DNA of 64,000 nucleotides from Acholeplasmataceae bacterium (GCA_963675245.1 OY775910.1:1024001-1088000), one strand, 5' to 3'; counted from the stretch's first letter, positions 22,910 to 50,686 are shown. The notes: generated by a model not told the origin, from the letters alone. Numbers and translations: made by a program.

Positions 22910-23112
22910 TTAAAATAAAAACGTCCCTAGATAAAATATCTAAGGACGATTAATCGCGGTACCACCTTAGTTCCAGATATATCTCTGGCCCTCAAACCGT
23001 TATAGCCGGTATACTGTTAGCTCCAAGGGTCCATTCATTAACAATAACATCGTTGGCTTACACTATCCCAACTCGCTTAACATGCTAGTTATTAATTACT
23101 TATTCCTTTTCT
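22910..23112 (-). promoter_or_regulatory. T-box riboswitch (Trp)
   Basis: Minus strand: GAA-TGG specifier (CCA at 23031-33), AAGGTGGTACCGCG (22955-68), terminator CGTCCTTAGA..TCTAGGGACG plus TTTT. Confidence 0.9.
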
Positions 23113-23136
23113 TTGCTTATATTCATTATAGTTTAA

Positions 23137-26856: not shown

Positions 26857-27867
26857 ATGGCTATTAAAGTAGCAATTAATGGGTTCGGCCGTATAGGTCG
26901 TCTCGCTTATCGTTTGATCTCAGATGATCCAACGTTTGATGTCGTTGCAGTAAACGACTTAACTGATGCAGAAACACTTGCATATTTATTGAAGTATGAT
27001 ACAGCACAAAGACCTTTCAGCAAAGAAGTAACTTTTGAAGGTAACGATTTAGTGGTTGCTGGTGACCGTTTAACGGTTTTATCAGAAAGAGATCCTAAAT
27101 TATTACCATGGAAAGAACTTGAAGTCGATGTTGTATTAGAATGTACTGGATTCTTTGCAAGTAAAGAAAAAGCGTCATGGCATTTAGAAGCAGGTGCTAA
27201 AAAAGTTGTTATTTCTGCACCAGCTGGTAGTGACGTTAAGACAGTCGTGTATAACGTTAATGATGATGTATTAAGTGCAGATGATGATATCGTAAGTGGT
27301 GCTTCATGTACAACAAACTGCCTTGCTCCATTATTGAAAGTATTAGATGATAACTTTGGTGTTAAAGGTGGATTCATGACAACTGTTCATGCTTACACTG
27401 CTGACCAATCACTTCAAGATCAACCACACAAAAAAGGCATTCTTTCTAGACGTGGTCGTGCAGCTGCTGAAAGTATTATTCCATCTTCAACTGGTGCTGC
27501 AAAAGCGATTGGCCTTGTATTACCTAACTTAAAAGGTAAATTAGATGGTACTGCTTTACGTGTACCAACAGTCACTGGTTCTATCGTTGACTTAACAGTA
27601 GAAGTTAAAAATCATACAGATTTAGAAGCGGTTGATAAAGCATTCAAAGCAGCAGCAAACGAAACATTAGCTTATGTCTTTGATCCAATCGTATCAAGTG
27701 ATGTTATCGGCACAAGATTTGGTTCATTATATGATGCACACACAACTCAAGTTGTTAACTATGATGATAGACAATTAGTTAAAGTTATGGGTTGGTATGA
27801 CAATGAAATGAGTTATACATCACAATTAATTCGCACAGTTCAAAAATTAGCAAGTTTGATTAAATAA
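26857..27867 (+). CDS. gap: Glyceraldehyde-3-phosphate dehydrogenase
   Basis: INGFGRIGR, SGASCTTNCLAP, STGAAKAIG, RVPT, WYDNE. Confidence 0.98.
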   Translation: MAIKVAINGFGRIGRLAYRLISDDPTFDVVAVNDLTDAETLAYLLKYDTAQRPFSKEVTFEGNDLVVAGDRLTVLSERDPKLLPWKELEVDVVLECTGFFASKEKASWHLEAGAKKVVISAPAGSDVKTVVYNVNDDVLSADDDIVSGASCTTNCLAPLLKVLDDNFGVKGGFMTTVHAYTADQSLQDQPHKKGILSRRGRAAAESIIPSSTGAAKAIGLVLPNLKGKLDGTALRVPTVTGSIVDLTVEVKNHTDLEAVDKAFKAAANETLAYVFDPIVSSDVIGTRFGSLYDAHTTQVVNYDDRQLVKVMGWYDNEMSYTSQLIRTVQKLASLIK

Positions 27868-27885: not shown

Positions 27886-27910
27886 AAAATCCCCAAAAAC
27901 GGGATTTTTT
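27886..27910 (+). terminator. Intrinsic terminator after gap
   Basis: AAAATCCC-CAAAAAC-GGGATTTT followed by TT. Confidence 0.7.
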
Positions 27911-27919
27911 ACTTTTTCC

Positions 27920-27948
27920 TTGACATTGTAAGTTAAATCTACTAAAAT
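27920..27948 (+). promoter_or_regulatory. Sigma-A promoter of the riboswitch-controlled fibre operon
   Basis: TTGACA (27920-25), 17 nt, TAAAAT (27943-48). Confidence 0.7.
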
Positions 27949-27983
27949 AAATTGGATAATATAGAGTATTATCGAAACTAGAC

Positions 27984-28059
27984 AGATGTAAAGAGCAAAA
28001 CTAGAGGGATCTAGTGACGCAAAGCTATAGGGCCTAGACAAGGTAGCCAGTTGCCATTT
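27984..28059 (+). ncRNA. GEMM-I (c-di-GMP-I family) cyclic dinucleotide riboswitch, A20 variant
   Basis: GCAAAA-CTAGA-GGGA-TCTAG-TGACGCAAAGCTATAGGGCCT...AGGTAGCCAGTTGCC: GNRA-capped P2, GACGCAAAG core, P3; P1 AGATG(27984-88)/CATTT(28055-59). The register matches Vibrio Vc2, with A at position 20 (nt 27994). Confidence 0.92.
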
Positions 28060-28109
28060 AGAATTTTAAAAATGGTAATTTGACTCGGCTCTGATTAATC
28101 TCATTAAGC

Positions 28110-28144
28110 AAAGGTCAACATTACCAAGTTGACCTTTTTATTTT
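28110..28144 (+). terminator. Riboswitch-regulated intrinsic terminator
   Basis: AAAGGTCAAC-ATTACCAA-GTTGACCTTT followed by TTATTTT, between the aptamer and the first gene. Confidence 0.85.
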
Positions 28145-28171
28145 CAAATATTTTAGTAAGGGAGGCATGCC

Positions 28172-28759
28172 ATGAAATCACGTCGGAGTATACAGTACAT
28201 GGTTATTGTACTACTCGTGGCCGCATTAGGGTTTACATCATCAGCAGCAGTAGCATATTGGAATGATGTAAGAAATGTATCTAATGTTGTTATTAATTTC
28301 TCTGACGAAGAAGCAGAACTACTAATTGAACAGACAAGTGAAGACTTCACCGGAACATTAGTGCCTCATTATTATGATTTCTTTGAGGGGCAAACAGATG
28401 AAGCAATATTCACTTATACGGTTGCAGTAGATAAAACGCTTGTCAAAGAAGTTAAATTGATTGTAGAAGCAATCAACATTCAAATTGGGGGATCTGATCA
28501 GTATACTAACCTTGTACATATCAAGATCAACGAGAATGACATGTATCATGTGAATAATTTATTCAATTCAGAGGTGACGATCACGGTAGTTGTAACACTA
28601 GATGAACCGATTGATCAGCAAGAAGCTCTCGATAGAGGGTTAGATGAGAGTTTCGTTAATGTCACGGATTCAGTGGCTGCGTACGAGACCATAAAAGGTG
28701 AGGTTATAAGTTTCACACTCAGCTTTTTAGTAGAGCCAAAAGAAACTTCAGAAACATAA
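28172..28759 (+). CDS. Secreted protein with SipW-type signal peptide (TasA/CalY/TapA-like minor subunit candidate)
   Basis: Basic N-terminus, hydrophobic core, ...SAAVA/YWND then NVVINFS; beta-rich acidic body ending ISFTLSF.V; RBS GGGAGG. Confidence 0.65.
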   Translation: MKSRRSIQYMVIVLLVAALGFTSSAAVAYWNDVRNVSNVVINFSDEEAELLIEQTSEDFTGTLVPHYYDFFEGQTDEAIFTYTVAVDKTLVKEVKLIVEAINIQIGGSDQYTNLVHIKINENDMYHVNNLFNSEVTITVVVTLDEPIDQQEALDRGLDESFVNVTDSVAAYETIKGEVISFTLSFLVEPKETSET

Positions 28760-28763
28760 ACTC

Positions 28764-28849
28764 AAAAAATCCAATGTAAAAAAACAATGTAAAAAACAAA
28801 AATCCAATGTAAAAAAAAACAATGTAAAAACAAAAATTCAATGTAAATA
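28764..28849 (+). repeat. Tandem CAATGTA-poly(A) repeats in the intergenic region
   Basis: CAATGTAAA five times (28772, 28785, 28805, 28820, 28839), forming ~2.5 copies of a ~33-nt unit AAAAATCCAATGTA(n)CAATGTA(n)C. Confidence 0.9.
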
Positions 28850-28867
28850 AGGAAAGGGAATTTAAAA

Positions 28868-29431
28868 ATGAAAAAAAGAAATTTAGTTATTGGTTTATTA
28901 GTTACTTTAGCGGTTGCATTAACAGGAGCAACATTTGCGTTTTGGGCAGGCGGCATTAGCAATGCAGATATAACAAATACAGGTACAATCACAATTGGGG
29001 ATGCTGATGCAGTAACTACTGCTGTGAGTACAAGTGACTATGTAGTTGCGGGTAGTTCATTAGTTCCAGTAGGTTATGAGGATGCTGGTGATAGTGAAGT
29101 TAGCAGTGTAGATTTAGAATTCGTCGTTATGTGGAATGGTACAGGTGCTGAAGGTGCGCTTGGTACACTTAACGTTACAGTAGATTCTGTTGTTATTAGT
29201 GGTGGTGCTTCAGATGGTCAAGAAGTTGAAGTTGGCGCAGCTAGTAGTTGGGATCTATTCACAGTTGATTTAAGTAATGTAACTGGTGTTGCAGTTGTTA
29301 ATGGTACTGCTACAGGCACACTTTTAATCACTGTTACATTTACAAATGAACCTGCTGATGCAGCTCAATATGCAGCAATTGCAACTAATAGTATTATCGT
29401 TACTTTAAGCTTTGACGTTACAGCTGCTTAA
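28868..29431 (+). CDS. TasA/CalY-like secreted fibre subunit with SipW-dependent signal peptide (major subunit candidate)
   Basis: MKKRNLVIGLLVTLAVALTGATFA/FW is a SipW-type signal (G.T.A.[FW]); then TNTGTITIG; Ala/Gly/Thr/Val-rich beta protein ending IIVTLSFDVTAA. Confidence 0.75.
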   Translation: MKKRNLVIGLLVTLAVALTGATFAFWAGGISNADITNTGTITIGDADAVTTAVSTSDYVVAGSSLVPVGYEDAGDSEVSSVDLEFVVMWNGTGAEGALGTLNVTVDSVVISGGASDGQEVEVGAASSWDLFTVDLSNVTGVAVVNGTATGTLLITVTFTNEPADAAQYAAIATNSIIVTLSFDVTAA

Positions 29432-29452
29432 TATAGTTAACAATATCATCTA

Positions 29453-29481
29453 ACGAATCATGGTCGAAAGACCATTTTCGT
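29453..29481 (+). terminator. Intergenic GAAA-tetraloop hairpin (3' stabiliser or leaky terminator)
   Basis: ACGAA..ATGGTC-GAAA-GACCAT..TTCGT after the putative major subunit. Confidence 0.55.
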
Positions 29482-29500
29482 GCGTAAGGAGGTCTCATAG

Positions 29501-30793
29501 ATGGAAATAAGAATACTAAACTTAAAACAAATATCATCATTGATTATTCTTTTCATGCTATCTATGTTCCTCACAACATTTACTTATGCTACCTGGATCA
29601 CAGGAATCGAGGATGGCTTAGGTACAGGTTTAGGTACCATTTCCATTGGTGCATGGACACAAGAACCAGAAGGTATTGATGCTTATAGTCCTACAATTGG
29701 TTATAGTAGTGGTGCGCTTGTCTGGTTTGAAGGTGATTTCTGGATTTATAAAGGTAATTATTCGTTTGGATTAGACCCTTCAATTGCTAATGGATGGACA
29801 TATTTAAACGATCTTAATTGGTATTCAAATATCATTTATCAAGCAAACGAAGTCGTCTATACAAACGGTATTGTATTCCAAACTTCTGGATATACTGTTG
29901 GTGATAATCCACTTGATGGTGCACCGTGGAATAGCATGATGAATAATCAAGTACAGTGGATTACCGGTCAAGCAGTTACCTTAAATGAAATTGTATTTTA
30001 TAATGGTCAATTATGGATATATCACGATTATTATACGACGTCACAACCGGGGTCTAATTCTGGTTGGGGATTAGTTGGTGATTTAACCTATTCAAGTGGA
30101 TTTGTTTATAATACAGGTGATGTAGTTATATATAATGGTACGTATTACATTGCTACAGGATATGCAAAAAATAAGAGACCAGATAAGAATAATAGTCCAT
30201 TTAACGTTCTAAATACTCCAACTTGGTCAAGTAGTATTCCAAATGGTACGACGCATGTACTATATAATGGATTGCTTTATGAAGCACTTATTACTAACAT
30301 AACAACCCTACAAAATGTAGTACCAGGTAGTTCATCATCATATGGTGTGTGGTCTGCGATTAATACACAAACATGGCAACAATACAACACGTATTCATCA
30401 AACGATCTCATTATGTATAACACAGATGTTTTCATGCTTGTCAATGAAAGTAACTCTACAATTATACCGGGTACTGCTGGCAATTCATGGAATTTAATGA
30501 ATAATATGGAATATGATCCATACAGTACATATAGCAATGGCGATTTTGCAGTTGTAAATGGTATTGTTTACGAAGTTGTGAATGCGTCAAATGCGAATTT
30601 ATATGCACCTGAAGTTGCTGCGAATTCATGGAATCGTTTAAGTGGTTATGATTGGTATTGGTTTAACAATTATGACGTTGGTGATATTTTATTCCATGGT
30701 AATGGCGTATATATTGCATTAGCAGCTTCAACCAATATTGAACCAGGTACCTCAGGTTCAGATTCATATTGGAGTTTATACAACGAAAACTAA
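29501..30793 (+). CDS. SipW-type secreted adhesin with ~8 CBM5/12 (ChtBD3)-like repeats
   Basis: Signal ...TFTYA/TW, then LGTISIG; eight repeats of [WY]....Y..GD.V.YNG..Y.A.......P....W; no membrane anchor or catalytic domain seen. Confidence 0.75.
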   Translation: MEIRILNLKQISSLIILFMLSMFLTTFTYATWITGIEDGLGTGLGTISIGAWTQEPEGIDAYSPTIGYSSGALVWFEGDFWIYKGNYSFGLDPSIANGWTYLNDLNWYSNIIYQANEVVYTNGIVFQTSGYTVGDNPLDGAPWNSMMNNQVQWITGQAVTLNEIVFYNGQLWIYHDYYTTSQPGSNSGWGLVGDLTYSSGFVYNTGDVVIYNGTYYIATGYAKNKRPDKNNSPFNVLNTPTWSSSIPNGTTHVLYNGLLYEALITNITTLQNVVPGSSSSYGVWSAINTQTWQQYNTYSSNDLIMYNTDVFMLVNESNSTIIPGTAGNSWNLMNNMEYDPYSTYSNGDFAVVNGIVYEVVNASNANLYAPEVAANSWNRLSGYDWYWFNNYDVGDILFHGNGVYIALAASTNIEPGTSGSDSYWSLYNEN

Positions 30794-30885
30794 TAAAAAA
30801 AAAAATCACACTTCCATTAATCGTTTGACTATTTTATATGATATAATAGCATTGAAAAGCGGTTAAACGGGAGTGTGATTTTCTA

Positions 30886-31452
30886 GTGAAAAGAAGAAAA
30901 AGCAAAAAAACCAGAGTAATTTTACTATCTGGAATCTACAGTTTAATAGGTATATTAGTATTACTGATTGTATTGCTTGCAGCAGCACCTAGTTTTATGC
31001 TCAATACGCTTGGTTTTAGAACATATGTTTCACACTATGATCAAATGGCACCAACGATTGAATCTAACTCACTCGTGTTTATCACGCAAGTTGATTTAAT
31101 GAATATTGAAAGCAATGATTTAATCACATTCCAATCTAATACAGATTTAAATGATGATGGTCGGAATGATTTGATCACTGGTTATTTTGATCGTACGAAC
31201 GGTACAGGAGATGCTGCTGATTATTATTTCAGAAGTGAAGGTTCCGTAGGAGATTGGGCAGTTATTCAATCAGGTAATATAATTGGTGGTTATGGATTCA
31301 GCATCCCTATATTGGGATTAATTATTGATTTTATTGGTAGTCCATTTGGCATTGCAGTTGTTTGTGTAAATATTGCCATCATTTCAGGCATTGTGTTTAT
31401 AGTGAAACAAGGTAGTAAAAAAGAACCAAAAGAAACACAAAAAGAACAGTAA
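30886..31452 (+). CDS. SipW/S26B signal-peptidase-like membrane protein, catalytic residues apparently lost
   Basis: TM, G.R.Y...YDQMAPTI..NSLVF...D...I..NDLITF...ITGY..., IP.LG....F..SP.G, TM. Collinear with the active paralog, but SGSM is YDQM and VVHR is ITGY. GTG start. Confidence 0.65.
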   Translation: MKRRKSKKTRVILLSGIYSLIGILVLLIVLLAAAPSFMLNTLGFRTYVSHYDQMAPTIESNSLVFITQVDLMNIESNDLITFQSNTDLNDDGRNDLITGYFDRTNGTGDAADYYFRSEGSVGDWAVIQSGNIIGGYGFSIPILGLIIDFIGSPFGIAVVCVNIAIISGIVFIVKQGSKKEPKETQKEQ

Positions 31453-31460
31453 GAGAGATT

Positions 31461-32105
31461 ATGAATCAAAGATTATTAACAACAGATGAATTACTTGATC
31501 AGTTAAAGGAGTCTCTTAGTGATTCCTATCAAACGCAATTAATACATCACAAACATAAAAAAATACAGTATTATATATTTTGGGGCATTGTAGCTATTGC
31601 AGTGCTTCATTTGTTATTGGTTTCATTACCGCTTATGATAGGTGTAAAAAATACAGTGAATGTTATCGGTCAAGCAAGAGTAGTTGGGATCCCTTATGTT
31701 CCTGGAGAAGTTCTTGAACGAGAAGGTCATACGATTGTTTTAAATCGATATGATGTGAGCAACATAGCAATTGATGACCATGTTGTGATCTATGGTATAT
31801 TAGATACAACATATTATTGGGATGTTATCATTACTGATTTCGATGTGAGTCAAGAAATTGTGAGTGTATCATACGATGGTTTGTATTCACTTGATTATTC
31901 GTTTAATGATATTCAAGGTGTTTATGTAAGAGATGCAAACTTCATGGGTATCATTATGTTTGTTTCTTCAAGAATTACAGGATTGATCACAACACTAGTT
32001 ATTTATGGAAGTGTAATTACGATATATTATGTCATAGTTATTAAAGAAATAAAAGTTATTGAAAAGAGGGATCATCATGAGCAAGAAGGGACATATCCAT
32101 CATAA
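31461..32105 (+). CDS. Two-TM membrane protein, probably a highly degenerate SipW-like paralog
   Basis: TM, IG..RVV, YD...I.IDD.VVIY, beta-rich loop, DIQGVY....N.MG...F.SS..G, TM; same layout as its neighbours, no catalytic motifs. Confidence 0.5.
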   Translation: MNQRLLTTDELLDQLKESLSDSYQTQLIHHKHKKIQYYIFWGIVAIAVLHLLLVSLPLMIGVKNTVNVIGQARVVGIPYVPGEVLEREGHTIVLNRYDVSNIAIDDHVVIYGILDTTYYWDVIITDFDVSQEIVSVSYDGLYSLDYSFNDIQGVYVRDANFMGIIMFVSSRITGLITTLVIYGSVITIYYVIVIKEIKVIEKRDHHEQEGTYPS

Positions 32106-32808
32106 AAAACTGATAGGTTCAATTATCTTTTACGTGCTTATGGCATTTCTTTTATATTATATTGCAGTAAACTTAATTGTCCCTGATCGAACCGTGCGAT
32201 TAGCGGGATTCCAATTATCAATTATACCTTCTGGTTCGATGGAACCCAATATCATGATTGGTGATATCATTATTATGACAAATATTGATAGTGAAAAAGT
32301 TAAAGAAAATGATATCGTCGTTTATTATAATTATATTGATCCAAATCAAGATGGTGTTTATACATATGAACGTGTTGTTCACCGTGTTATTTCAACCGAG
32401 GTCGTCGGAAATGAAACAAGAATAATTACTAAGGGTGATAATAATTCAGCAAATGACATCATCAGAAATAGTAGTGGTATGATTGAAGGTTATTTGACAA
32501 CGAAAGATGTCATTGCTCAAGTTCCTCAAATTGGATCGAATCATTGGGTACTACGTATTCCACAAGTTGGATATGTGATGCTTTATGCGCAATGGTTTGT
32601 AAGATTTATGATTTCAAATCCTATTCTGTTATTATTAGTGGTTGTCAATGTTGCAGTCATTGTTACATTGATTGTTGTTATTGTTAAAGGTAATAAAGCG
32701 AAACATGTCGCAGGTACAAAAGAAGAAGAATCGCGCATTAAAGCGAATGATGTAACTGATGAAACTGAACATGAACGTGATGATGATGAAGAGGATGGTA
32801 GTGCATGA
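32077..32808 (+). CDS. sipW: Signal peptidase I, SipW/S26B (ER-type, Ser-His)
   Basis: IPSGSMEP.I..GD, RVVHRV, TKGDNN...D, IP.VGY, flanking TM helices; ATG 32077 after GAGGG. Confidence 0.9.
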   Translation: MSKKGHIHHKKLIGSIIFYVLMAFLLYYIAVNLIVPDRTVRLAGFQLSIIPSGSMEPNIMIGDIIIMTNIDSEKVKENDIVVYYNYIDPNQDGVYTYERVVHRVISTEVVGNETRIITKGDNNSANDIIRNSSGMIEGYLTTKDVIAQVPQIGSNHWVLRIPQVGYVMLYAQWFVRFMISNPILLLLVVVNVAVIVTLIVVIVKGNKAKHVAGTKEEESRIKANDVTDETEHERDDDEEDGSA

Positions 32809-33455
32809 CATGGGATATGTTTGTTCAAGATGAACTCAAAAAACCATATTTTCAGTCGCTTGTCTCTTTTTTAAAAGAAGAAGACAAGCATAAAGTTATT
32901 CTGCCACCAAAAGATAATCGATTGGCGTGTTTTAAACTGACACCTTATGATGAAGTTAAAGTTGTTATAGTTGGTCAAGATCCTTATCATAATGTTCATC
33001 AAGCACACGGATTAGCTTTTAGTGTGGAAAGTGGTAAATTTCCACCAAGTCTTCAAAACATATATAAAGAATTAGTAAGTGATTTAGGTGTGAGTTATCC
33101 CACAACAGGCAACTTAACAGCATGGGCAAAACAAGGTGTGCTTTTATTAAATACAGTATTGACAGTTGAGATACATAAACCTTTATCACATCAACATCAA
33201 GGTTGGGAAACATTCACGTTAGAAGCGATTAAAAAAGTGAATGAAAAAGATGATTGTGTCATCTTTATATTATGGGGTGCCAAAGCGAAAGCTTATATAA
33301 AATATATTGATGTAAAAAAGCATCGTGTGATTACATCTGTTCACCCATCTCCTTTTTCAGCAAGAAATGGCTTTTTTGGATCAAAACCATTTAGTCAAAC
33401 TAATGCGTATTTAAAGGAAGCAGGAAAAAAACCAATTGATTGGTCATTATCCTAG
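32805..33455 (+). CDS. ung: Uracil-DNA glycosylase
   Basis: GQDPYH, AHGLAFSV, PPSLQNI, WAKQGVLLLN, HPSPFS. Confidence 0.97.
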   Translation: MTWDMFVQDELKKPYFQSLVSFLKEEDKHKVILPPKDNRLACFKLTPYDEVKVVIVGQDPYHNVHQAHGLAFSVESGKFPPSLQNIYKELVSDLGVSYPTTGNLTAWAKQGVLLLNTVLTVEIHKPLSHQHQGWETFTLEAIKKVNEKDDCVIFILWGAKAKAYIKYIDVKKHRVITSVHPSPFSARNGFFGSKPFSQTNAYLKEAGKKPIDWSLS

Positions 33456-33498
33456 CATTTCATTACAATTTTAAGTAAAAGAGCGTATAATAAATGAT

Positions 33499-33588
33499 AC
33501 AGAGTAGCTAGAATGCGTAAAGTGTCTGACCATGGGATGTCGGGTTGGAACGAACACGAAAGTGGCGGTAATCTAGCGCGTCCGCTGT
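33499..33588 (+). ncRNA. THF (tetrahydrofolate) riboswitch
   Basis: ACAGAGTAG...TGCGTAAAGTG...GGGATGT...AACGAA...GCGG...GCGTCCGCTGT follows the THF-I consensus and lies upstream of a folate ECF S component. Confidence 0.9.
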
Positions 33589-33628
33589 AAAGTATTTTAT
33601 AGTGGGCCTCAAGAGGAGGTCTTTTTTC

Positions 33629-34174
33629 ATGGAAACACACAGATTGTTAAAAAAAGTTGCGTTAGCAGCAGTCTTTACGGCCGTTTCAATTGTTATTGAT
33701 ATCTTTTTCAAACAATTACTTGGATTGCCAAACTTTGGTGTGCCATTTTATGCCATACCACTTGTTTATGGGTCGATTTTATTAGGACCTGCCTATGGTG
33801 TCATCATGAGTGTCATCAGTGATGCAGTAGGTGTTATGTTATCCCCGTATGGGTATTTACCATTGTTTGTCATTGCTCCTGTTTTCTGGGGATTATTACC
33901 AGGAATTATTATGGGGAAAAAGAAGAAAAATTGGATGAGATTAGCGATTGCGATTTTCGCTACGTACTTATTCGCATCACTTGCTAATACGCTCGCGATT
34001 TTCTATTATTATGGTGAAGGTTCAGCTTTGGCAACACTTTTGAGTCGCGTGGGACTTATTCCATTTAATACGATTATCATGTTTTTCATCATTAAAGAAC
34101 TGATTAAAAAACTTGAACCGATTAGTGAACGATTCTTTGATCAACCATTAAAAGCAGATGAGTCGGAAATATAA
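33629..34174 (+). CDS. folT: Folate ECF transporter S component
   Basis: K.VALAAVFTAVSIVI, GSILLGP.YG, SDAVG, ~6 TM helices; THF riboswitch upstream; RBS GAGGAGG before ATG 33629. Confidence 0.85.
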   Translation: METHRLLKKVALAAVFTAVSIVIDIFFKQLLGLPNFGVPFYAIPLVYGSILLGPAYGVIMSVISDAVGVMLSPYGYLPLFVIAPVFWGLLPGIIMGKKKKNWMRLAIAIFATYLFASLANTLAIFYYYGEGSALATLLSRVGLIPFNTIIMFFIIKELIKKLEPISERFFDQPLKADESEI

Positions 34175-45575: not shown

Positions 45576-47094
<1,519 letters not shown>

Positions 47095-47289
47095 AAGGAG
47101 AAAGGCGAGTCGTAACAGACTCATTACAATTCTCACTTATGGGTATTCGCAAGAAGACCTGTAAACATTACACTCATCATATTCAGTTTCCAAAGACTTA
47201 CAAAAGTCTTTGAACAAGGAATTTAAAAATTCCTGATCAAAAAGATTTGATCTTTGAAAAGTAGATAAAAGCTGTCATAAAAAAGAAAA

Positions 47290-47395
47290 GTTGTTTTTTA
47301 AGGCAAAACAACGTGTTGATTAATCTAAAGATTAACAACTGGTTGATTATTTCTAGTGAAATAACAACTGGTTGATTATTCTAACGAATAACAAC
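47290..47395 (+). repeat. Tandem GTTG...CAAC hairpins in the 16S-23S spacer
   Basis: Four consecutive stems; TAACAACTGGTTGATTATT occurs twice. No tRNA seen in the spacer. Confidence 0.7.
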
Positions 47396-47396
47396 T

Positions 47397-50242
<2,846 letters not shown>

Positions 50243-50388
50243 GTTAGTTTTGAAAAAACGAATAGCACGAGGGTTTTCCTAAGGAAAGCCAGTGCACAAG
50301 TTAACAATGAAAGCCTTATAGACAACAAACTCTTGATTTTCCTAGTGAAAAACAAGTATGACAGCATTTATCTAGTTTTGAAGGATTG

Positions 50389-50497
50389 TCTGGTGGCGAT
50401 GGCGAAGTGGACACACCTGTTCCCATCCCGAACACAGCAGTTAAGCACTTCTGCGCCGACGATAGCACTAAGGTGCGAAAATAGGACGCTGCCAGGC
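50389..50497 (+). rRNA. rrf: 5S rRNA
   Basis: TCTGGTGGCGAT...CACCTGTTCCCATCCCGAACACAGCAGTTAAGC...GCTGCCAGGC; ~109 nt. Confidence 0.95.
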
Positions 50498-50609: not shown

Positions 50610-50686
50610 GCCTACATAGCTCAGTTGGTTAGAGCACCTGACTGTTAATCAGGGGGTCCTAGGTTCGAGTCCTAGTGTGGGCGCCA
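50610..50686 (+). tRNA. tRNA-Asn(GTT)
   Basis: Acceptor GCCTACA/TGTGGGC, D arm AGCTCAGTTGGTTAGAGC, anticodon GTT at 50644-46, GGTTCGAGTCC, encoded CCA. Confidence 0.96.

Follow-up and report, generated by a model that had tools for sequence, protein, structure and literature searches.

A riboswitch-led operon with SipW-type peptidases in an Acholeplasma-type bacterium and the TasA-like fibre it may encode

The gap-ung locus and its riboswitch leader

An operon of six co-directional open reading frames (ORFs), here termed p1 to p6, lies downstream of a cyclic-dinucleotide riboswitch leader and between the genes gap and ung in the genome of an Acholeplasmataceae bacterium (GCA_963675245.1). The sequence analysed, referred to below as the window, is a stretch of 64,000 nucleotides (OY775910.1:1024001-1088000), and coordinates are counted from its first letter unless a contig or locus is named (Table 1). 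The reading favoured here, with a little more belief than doubt, is that the riboswitch switches an operon that exports three SipW-processed proteins, p1 to p3, and that p2 builds a TasA-like donor-strand fibre. A first-pass annotation of the same DNA had described, between gap and ung, a promoter, a GEMM-I riboswitch and a terminator, followed by secreted proteins with the cleavage motifs AVA/YW, TFA/FW and TYA/TW and the strands NVVINFS, NTGTITIG and LGTISIG. The ORF coordinates agree with this position, all three leader elements are present, and both motifs and strands are found in the translations of p1 to p3 and are conserved in their orthologs.

Table 1. Coordinates of the operon, its leader and its flanking genes in the window.
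Feature	Position	Strand	Description
gap	26857-27867		upstream flank
gap terminator	27886-27908		
Sigma-70-like promoter	27920-27948	+	TTGACA, 17-nucleotide spacer, TAAAAT
c-di-GMP-I (GEMM-I) aptamer	27984-28058	+	Rfam RF01051
Hairpin, aptamer 3′ strand AGUUGCCAUUU × AAAUGGUAAUU	28049-28080	+	proposed anti-antiterminator, ligand-free state
Proposed antiterminator, UGGUAAUUUGAC × GUCAACAUUACCA	28073-28126	+	GUCAACAUUACCA is the terminator 5′ arm and loop
Intrinsic terminator of expression platform	28110-28137	+	10-pair stem, 8-nucleotide loop, T run; also in folds
p1	28172-28759	+	195 residues; secreted p2 paralog, conserved (minor?) subunit
p2	28868-29431	+	187 residues; secreted beta-sandwich protein, proposed major subunit
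p3	29501-30793	+	430 residues; N-terminal module, then eight CBM5/12-like repeats
p4	30886-31452	+	188 residues; SipW-type paralog, N- and C-terminal membrane segments
p5	31461-32105	+	214 residues; distant SipW-type paralog
p6	32059-32808	+	249 residues; SipW/endoplasmic reticulum (ER)-type signal peptidase I (S26B)
ung	32805-33455		downstream flank, four-base overlap with p6 end

The promoter-like site, directly 3′ of the gap terminator, is a match to consensus only, at 11 of 12 positions, and is the best such site between 27800 and 33000. The aptamer scores 58.1 bits with RF01051 (gathering score 35; E 9e-9 over the whole window) and spans the full model, positions 1-87. When the leader is folded without constraint, AGUUGCCAUUU (28049-28059) pairs with AAAUGGUAAUU (28070-28080) and the terminator is free to form; this hairpin appears in the minimum-free-energy (MFE) folds for the whole leader and for successively longer prefixes. 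When the aptamer is masked, as a mimic of the ligand-bound state, UGGUAAUUUGAC (28073-28084) pairs with positions 28114-28126 (MFE −15.9 kcal/mol), and this antiterminator helix is the MFE structure before the 3′ arm of the terminator has been transcribed. In the complete leader, antiterminator (−16.7) and terminator (−17.2) are nearly equal. A Shine-Dalgarno-like AAGGGAGG stands just 5′ of the p1 ATG at 28172; for p6, the ATG at 32077 is a possible alternative start.

The three-helix design is common to the two closest relatives (leaders L029 and L031). Five more distant leaders (L027, L034, L035, L036 and L042) have a second kind of platform, in which the 3′ strand of the aptamer is itself the terminator 5′ arm and is followed by a U run. 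Taken together, the helix competition and the second platform suggest that both kinds are ON switches, with read-through when ligand is bound: ligand, cyclic di-GMP (c-di-GMP) and possibly also 3′3′-cyclic GMP-AMP (3′3′-cGAMP), would hold the aptamer 3′ strand, the freed antiterminator would form, and RNA polymerase would pass the terminator. The leader thus combines a terminator with alternative helices that overlap the aptamer 3′ strand, as an expression platform should, and the earlier call of a cyclic-dinucleotide riboswitch with a terminator platform is upheld.

The nature of the ligand is complicated by a single base. Position 11 of the Rfam model, just 5′ of the first helix, is G in the consensus and A (27994) in the present leader; we take it to correspond to G20 of Vc2. 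Among 27 operon riboswitches, seven have A here (this one and six orthologs of the genus) and 20 have G (17 called by script and three by eye). The G20A exchange in Vc2 leads to binding of both c-di-GMP and 3′3′-cGAMP, and natural riboswitches with A20 accept cGAMP or both ligands, as described in PMC6140456. A riboswitch that answers to 3′3′-cGAMP, or to cGAMP and c-di-GMP, rather than to c-di-GMP alone, is regarded as a minority possibility: it is favoured by these binding data, by the A at 27994 and in the six orthologs, and by an A in two of three tandem aptamers elsewhere in the genome, whereas 20 of the 27 orthologous riboswitches keep G, Rfam clan competition retained RF01051, and the genome has 10 GGDEF matches.

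Peptidases and secreted proteins

Of the three distal genes, p6 encodes a true SipW/ER-type enzyme. It matches TIGR02228 with 76.4 bits (cut-off 51.85; 77.3 bits in the genome scan) and lies below the Bacillus SipW equivalog NF046067 (57.3 vs. 190 bits; p4 has 32.4 bits). By these profiles, p6 and p4 belong to the same subfamily as SipW and are not equivalogs. Residues S60, M61 and H108 of p6 are invariant in 13 of 13 orthologs and the GDNN box is kept in nearly all; the best solved relatives of the family profile are human SEC11C and SEC11A (E 4.9e-17), aligned over the SMEP, HR and GDNN boxes. p6 is therefore a SipW/ER-type signal peptidase I with an intact, active-looking catalytic site. 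Since a separate bacterial-type signal peptidase I (93.6 bits) is encoded elsewhere in the genome, p6 appears to be an additional, dedicated enzyme, as the first-pass annotation had it, and a role as the sole housekeeping signal peptidase is ruled out.

The same annotation listed three SipW-like membrane proteins. Homology holds for all of them: hhalign comparison with the p6 family gives 100% (E 2.9e-39) for p4 and 97.6% (E 2.6e-12, 173 columns) for p5, which has no Pfam or NCBIfam matches. Catalysis does not: p6 has both Ser and His, but in p4 the catalytic Ser is replaced by Gln53 (Thr in most of the genus) and the His by Gly99 (Tyr in others), and p5 has Val and Asp at the aligned positions, so that p4 and p5 are predicted to be catalytically dead paralogs of p6 in this genome. 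In other lineages p4 retains Ser and His, which places the catalytic loss, judged from the alignments, as a derived trait of this genome's clade; minimal loci with the label Izemoplasmatales or Bacillales encode just one p4-type enzyme, which looks active.

The three secreted proteins share an N-terminal module. Orthologs of p1 to p3 have small residues (A, T or G) at −3 and −1 and an aromatic pair (Y/F-W) at +1/+2; the alternating strand that follows ends in an almost invariant Gly, exemplified by G44 of p2, which hardly varies among 147 sequences. From the −1 Ala, the Gly of the IxIG motif is 20 residues away in p2, in p3 and in a 1313-residue protein that follows another of the genome's riboswitches; p1 has a spacing four residues shorter than p2.

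p1 and p2 are paralogs (hhalign of p1 against the p2 family: 95%, E 3.6e-8, 164 columns), and neither matches a Pfam family. A profile of 15 p2 relatives, searched among 1.84 billion proteins, recovered 671 cluster representatives at E ≤1e-3 and 442 at 1e-10, a family that no Pfam or curated model covers. The Pfam family most often touched by its members is PF12389 (Peptidase_M73, TasA/camelysin), weakly and in 10 of 147 cases (best E 4.5e-4); among named ESM-Atlas clusters, the nearest is again PF12389 (score 0.93, on 22% of members). Comparison of the p2 family with an M73-like alignment, built from the canonical sipW-tasA-like pair of a relative (L056) and homologs, gives 94.2% (hhalign, E 1.1e-7) over 52 columns, equivalent to p2 residues 4-55. 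The shared stretch comprises leader, cleavage site and first strand only; likewise, PF12389 matches in the relatives' genomes are mostly limited to model positions 3 to about 57-78. Together with the conservation of the motif in orthologs, this supports the earlier description of a SipW-type cleavage motif followed by a strand. In TasA, the donor strand is formed by residues 28-38, directly after the SipW cleavage site, and the N-terminus of TapA is similar to that of TasA (PMC9674648). By sequence, the module shared with M73-like proteins is exactly the part of TasA that is cut by SipW and then acts as donor strand.

The p2 body is less telling. An AlphaFold2 model based on 147 family sequences (predicted local distance difference test, pLDDT, 85.3; predicted template-modelling score 0.68) replaced one from 15 sequences (pLDDT 65), whose fold searches were uninformative. 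It consists of a leader helix, an irregular N-terminal segment and, from residue 51, a beta-sandwich with one short helix. The top Foldseek match in the PDB is the TasA fibre (8aur_A), a weak one (E 2.9e-3, prob 1.00, TMq 0.38; 227 columns, 14% identity). VIA-align places the same structure at rank 48 (Z 5.0, root-mean-square deviation 3.9, 123 residues, 20% identity), and neither its wide search nor a second look singled out TasA. Donor-strand pilins (CsuA/B, PapA, PapE and Fim) and their chaperones recur in the lists of fold matches. Sequence searches of solved structures with the p2 profiles and the M73-like profile gave nothing meaningful and did not recover TasA itself; complex prediction with three copies of mature p2 (residues 25-187) scored 0.00 and is uninformative either way. 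On these models, the fold neither proves nor excludes a relation to TasA and its jelly-roll, and the body is best described as a generic beta-sandwich.

p2 also diverges much faster than its neighbours. Identity to the relative G005 is 44% for p2, as against 92% for gap, 79% for p1, 71% for p3, 63% for p4, 51% for p5, 54% for p6 and 78% for ung; this fits an exposed major subunit. In another genome of the genus (G007, L039 6711-7218) the p2 gene is split into two ORFs of 93 and 81 residues, likely a frameshift or pseudogene in an otherwise intact operon. Close p2 homologs (P0003 and P0007, 52% and 45% identity) occur in transcriptome assemblies labelled Anaeramoeba, probably from associated bacteria and not from the eukaryote.

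In p3, the module runs straight into eight repeats of about 46 residues (residues 61-430 by self-alignment), and no sandwich domain was detected. The protein matches CBM_5_12 (PF02839) in three stretches with 40.1 bits (cut-off 26.2); scanned singly, three of the eight repeats match CBM_5_12 and one matches CBM_5_12_2. The third protein can thus be called carbohydrate-binding, as proposed earlier. A GH18 chitinase was not found in the genome, and a link between p3 and the use of chitin is therefore unsupported. A strand-only p3 would be able to donate but not to accept a strand, as has been proposed for TapA and AbpB.

Host, distribution and related loci

The genome is a single contig of 1,626,300 bases and 99.96% complete. 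It has no match to the penicillin-binding protein (PBP) transpeptidase domain (PF00905) or to FtsW/RodA SEDS proteins (PF01098), MraY, MurA and MurG not having been searched, and a single Mur_ligase_M match, in a 417-residue ORF. A look through public sequencing runs turned up four DNA entries, all of one study, and no RNA entry. These results, and named relatives that are Acholeplasmataceae or Mycoplasmatota, agree with the wall-less host suspected in the first pass; by its gene content the host is a wall-less Acholeplasma-type bacterium. Named carriers of the locus are metagenome-assembled genomes (MAGs) of Acholeplasmataceae, 'Mycoplasmatota bacterium strain zrk7' (CP076021.1, a cultured relative within the genus), Mariniplasma, Izemoplasmatales and Tenericutes; a few locus-bearing MAGs are labelled Bacillales, Bacillota, Erysipelotrichaceae or Erysipelothrix.

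A p2 query matched 20 of 61 genomes, this one included: all nine other genomes of the genus, 18 of 36 of the family, and one of 24 in the order's other four families. The synteny survey that had been suggested showed the order gap, riboswitch, p1-p6, ung to be kept within the genus and in other genera. Both gap and ung are present in 22 of 33 named loci. Among loci of this kind, 14 of 14 have the riboswitch in the interval from gap to the first subunit gene. Of 13 additional loci, 10 have it 5′ of p1 and none was seen in three (L091, L109 and L087, for which upstream DNA is missing), so that the link between riboswitch and operon holds in 24 of the 27 relatives' loci examined. Of five family members without the operon, whose genomes are small (0.7-1.2 Mb), three have gap immediately beside ung, at a distance of 74-102 bases. 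This adjacency indicates that the operon is a discrete cassette at the gap-ung site, which may have been either inserted or lost. From its distribution, the locus is a conserved cassette of the family and no peculiarity of this genome. Elsewhere, genome G027 (L030, L040) has four p2 paralogs away from the gap-ung site, three of them within about 5 kb; no c-di-GMP-I aptamer was found in the flanks examined.

The genome has six c-di-GMP-I aptamers, each located 5′ of proteins with a SipW-type leader. A relaxed leader motif (K/R n-region, 16 uncharged residues, [FYWV]A[FYWT][FW]) matches eight of 1831 ORFs of at least 80 residues, and all eight lie downstream of c-di-GMP-I riboswitches.

Three of these aptamers stand in tandem (G000:C1:1397816-1398143, L045 1816-2143; 60.9, 53.5 and 52.7 bits; G, A and A at model position 11, in this order). 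They lead a cluster with two SipW-type peptidases, one of them just over the cut-off (52.4 bits), and several small leader-bearing proteins of TYAW/TFAWF type. A further aptamer, at 1406638, runs into the end of the second peptidase gene, ahead of two more leader-bearing proteins and a 2499-residue protein. Inside this second SipW/TasA-like cluster (L045 5783-9192, G000:C1:1401783-1405192) lie an AAA_5-like ATPase (512 residues) and a DUF2357 protein (617 residues), which may be an inserted restriction-type gene pair. In locus L046 (G000:C1:1095619-1099654), the strongest aptamer of the genome (67.8 bits) precedes the 1313-residue protein, which has the module SFA/YW ... IPIG and weak SbsC_C and Endotoxin_C2-like repeat matches.

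The start codon of ung overlaps the stop codon of p6 (32805-32808), and overlap or close abutment is also seen in orthologous loci; ung may be partly co-transcribed with the riboswitch-controlled operon or may have its own internal promoter. A tetrahydrofolate (THF) riboswitch (33498-33589, 67.6 bits), next to ung in relatives as well, precedes a 190-residue multi-pass membrane protein (33602-34174), probably a folate-family transporter. The window further contains a T-box leader (22939-23122, minus strand, 99 bits), a complete 16S/23S/5S rRNA operon (45576-50497, plus strand) and tRNA-Asn(GTT) (50610-50686, plus strand).

The proposed fibre, its alternatives and its significance

The operon product is probably an adhesive extracellular fibre, with polymerisation by donor strand as the suggested mode of assembly. 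On this proposal, p1, p2 and p3 would be exported and cleaved by p6 after the small-x-small motifs A-V-A, T-F-A and T-Y-A, so that the mature proteins would begin with an aromatic pair and a short alternating strand. This strand would complete the beta-sandwich of a neighbouring subunit, as in TasA. The fast-evolving p2 would polymerise into the fibre, with the conserved p1 as a minor subunit. The strand of p3 would plug a free groove, and p3 might thus serve as a TapA-like nucleator or as an end piece that binds a chitin-like or cellulose-like polysaccharide. p4 and p5, with two membrane segments, could, as a speculation, be non-catalytic partners or membrane holdfasts that take the place of a cell wall.

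Several observations weigh against this picture. p1, p2 and p3 have no PF12389 match at E up to 1, and TIGR04088 gives p1 15.0 bits, under its cut-off of 19. The hidden Markov model check for the TasA/Peptidase_M73 family, which the first-pass annotation had proposed, is thus divided: the curated cut-offs are missed, and leader, cleavage site and first strand are recovered by profile comparison. That similarity ends after 52 columns, and may stem from recognition by a common type of peptidase instead of from a common fibre mechanism. The monomer model of p2 has no strand in residues 37-49, Foldseek gave no match at E 1e-3, and VIA-align ranks generic immunoglobulin (Ig)-like, PapD-like and MSP sandwiches (Z 6-7.2) over TasA. 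p3 is missing from five of 22 complete gap...ung loci and is therefore not essential; with an apparently catalytic p4 in other lineages, a dead-peptidase anchor is no general design. The leader motif was defined after p1 to p3 had been seen, which makes the genome scan descriptive and not a test. Finally, the ligand is uncertain, and c-di-GMP alone is not assured, because the presumed G20 is A here.

The same evidence can be arranged differently. p1 to p3 may be monomeric adhesins or coat proteins, secreted or at the surface, that share the SipW-type leader only via their dedicated peptidase, with no strand exchange; this is a serious alternative, albeit a rather improbable one. Restriction of the TasA-like similarity to the 52 N-terminal columns, the generic Ig-like sandwich of the p2 body, the predominance of carbohydrate-binding modules in p3, and the large, adhesin-like character of other proteins with the same leader in the genome (1313 and 2499 residues) would all be accommodated. 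Recognition of a signal peptide alone does not, however, explain an IxIG strand with an invariant Gly at a fixed spacing from the cleavage site. A p3 with strand module but without sandwich is sensible if it docks into another subunit, and a pair of paralogous small subunits of which one evolves fast is a typical feature of pilus loci.

It is very improbable that the N-terminal segments stay uncleaved, with p1 to p3 as membrane-anchored surface proteins and p4 to p6 as their partners, not a processing enzyme. Membrane-anchored surface proteins are common in wall-less bacteria, and two of the three peptidase paralogs are predicted to be dead here, but nearly all p6 orthologs have Ser, His and GDNN, and the small residues at −3 and −1 across the orthologs of p1 to p3 follow the signal-peptidase rule. 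Type IV pilins and sortase pili were also considered and rejected: inspection of the translations by eye revealed no class III leader or LPXTG motif, and the host has no wall. Extending the fibre proposal, all SipW-leader proteins might form one cyclic-dinucleotide regulon (6/6 GEMM-I copies, 8/8 ORFs) that builds a modular fibre, in which interchangeable strand-module end pieces (p3 and the 1313-residue protein) plug into the p2 polymer and the dead p4 and p5 hold it in the membrane; this is a long shot. If true, p4 and p5 holding the fibre in place of a wall would be a new anchoring principle for donor-strand fibres.

The donor-strand fibre reading finds its closest counterpart in tapA-sipW-tasA of Bacillus subtilis. 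Both operons include a dedicated SipW/ER-type peptidase, the present subunits match M73-like proteins in profile comparison over leader, cleavage site and first strand, and assembly by donor strand, as in TasA, is proposed here; TapA resembles p3 as an accessory protein with the same N-terminal strand (PMC9674648). Unlike TasA, p1 to p3 miss PF12389, and TasA is a weak fold match. The Bacillus operon is under SinR control (PMC9674648), whereas the present one is under a cyclic-dinucleotide riboswitch, has three peptidase paralogs (two predicted to be dead) and a CBM5/12-array accessory protein, and resides in a host without a wall for TapA-type anchoring. What is new relative to tapA-sipW-tasA is the riboswitch control, the three peptidase paralogs, the strand-only CBM5/12 protein and a subunit family outside curated models.

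The archaeal bundling pili (ABP) of Pyrobaculum, with subunits AbpA and AbpB, offer a second comparison. AbpA is a very divergent TasA-like subunit, seen only by sensitive comparison, and forms a donor-strand fibre in an organism without peptidoglycan; AbpB is proposed to provide the first strand and to bear distal adhesin domains, much as suggested for p3, and membrane proteins of the ABP operon are proposed as anchors, as speculated here for p4 and p5 (PMC9245690). The AbpA profile matches PF12389 with 97% over the ectodomain (PMC9245690), whereas the match of the p2 family is N-terminal only. The ABP locus has no dedicated peptidase (PMC9245690); the present operon has an active one and two degenerate ones. 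The ABP system is archaeal, and the present one bacterial and riboswitch-controlled.

In Bacillus cereus (sipW-tasA-calY) and Clostridium perfringens (sipW-bsaA), sipW likewise neighbours genes for one or two paralogous subunits of matrix or pilin-like type (PMC4292775, PMC7395162). These are walled Firmicutes, and their subunits belong to different families. To our knowledge, with no search aimed at the point, no riboswitch leader is known for either system. GEMM-I leaders precede adhesion and surface-structure genes, including those for chitin-binding proteins, in Firmicutes and Vibrio; here, by comparison, six of six GEMM-I copies precede SipW-type-leader proteins in a Mollicute-type host. 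Tandem c-di-GMP-I arrays have been described (PMC12452182). Chaperone-usher pili (Fim, Pap, Caf1 and Csu) also have an Ig-like sandwich and an N-terminal extension, proposed here to complement a neighbour, and their pilins and chaperones are among the p2 fold matches at Z 5-6.4, although such scores are common for unrelated sandwiches; the present system has no periplasm, chaperone or usher and no sequence-level relation to them. The first-pass annotation knew of no such system characterised in Mollicutes, and the literature search, with thin coverage of subscription journals, turned up no paper that connects TasA, SipW or c-di-GMP riboswitches with Acholeplasma, Mollicutes or Tenericutes.

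Bacillus biofilms have TasA-type fibres as their main protein scaffold, and archaeal bundling pili are built by distant relatives, but outside Bacillus little is known of the regulation, nucleation and anchoring of such fibres. The locus described here is a compact, widely conserved variant in a host that lacks a wall, with an RNA switch as its only evident regulator. The strand-only adhesin p3 provides a test of the idea that TapA is a nucleator, and p4 and p5 are candidate natural pseudo-peptidases. Since the genus has a cultured member (CP076021.1), filaments, processing and riboswitch ligand are directly testable. The operon would also clearly exemplify how a cyclic dinucleotide controls surface structures in bacteria of Mollicute type.

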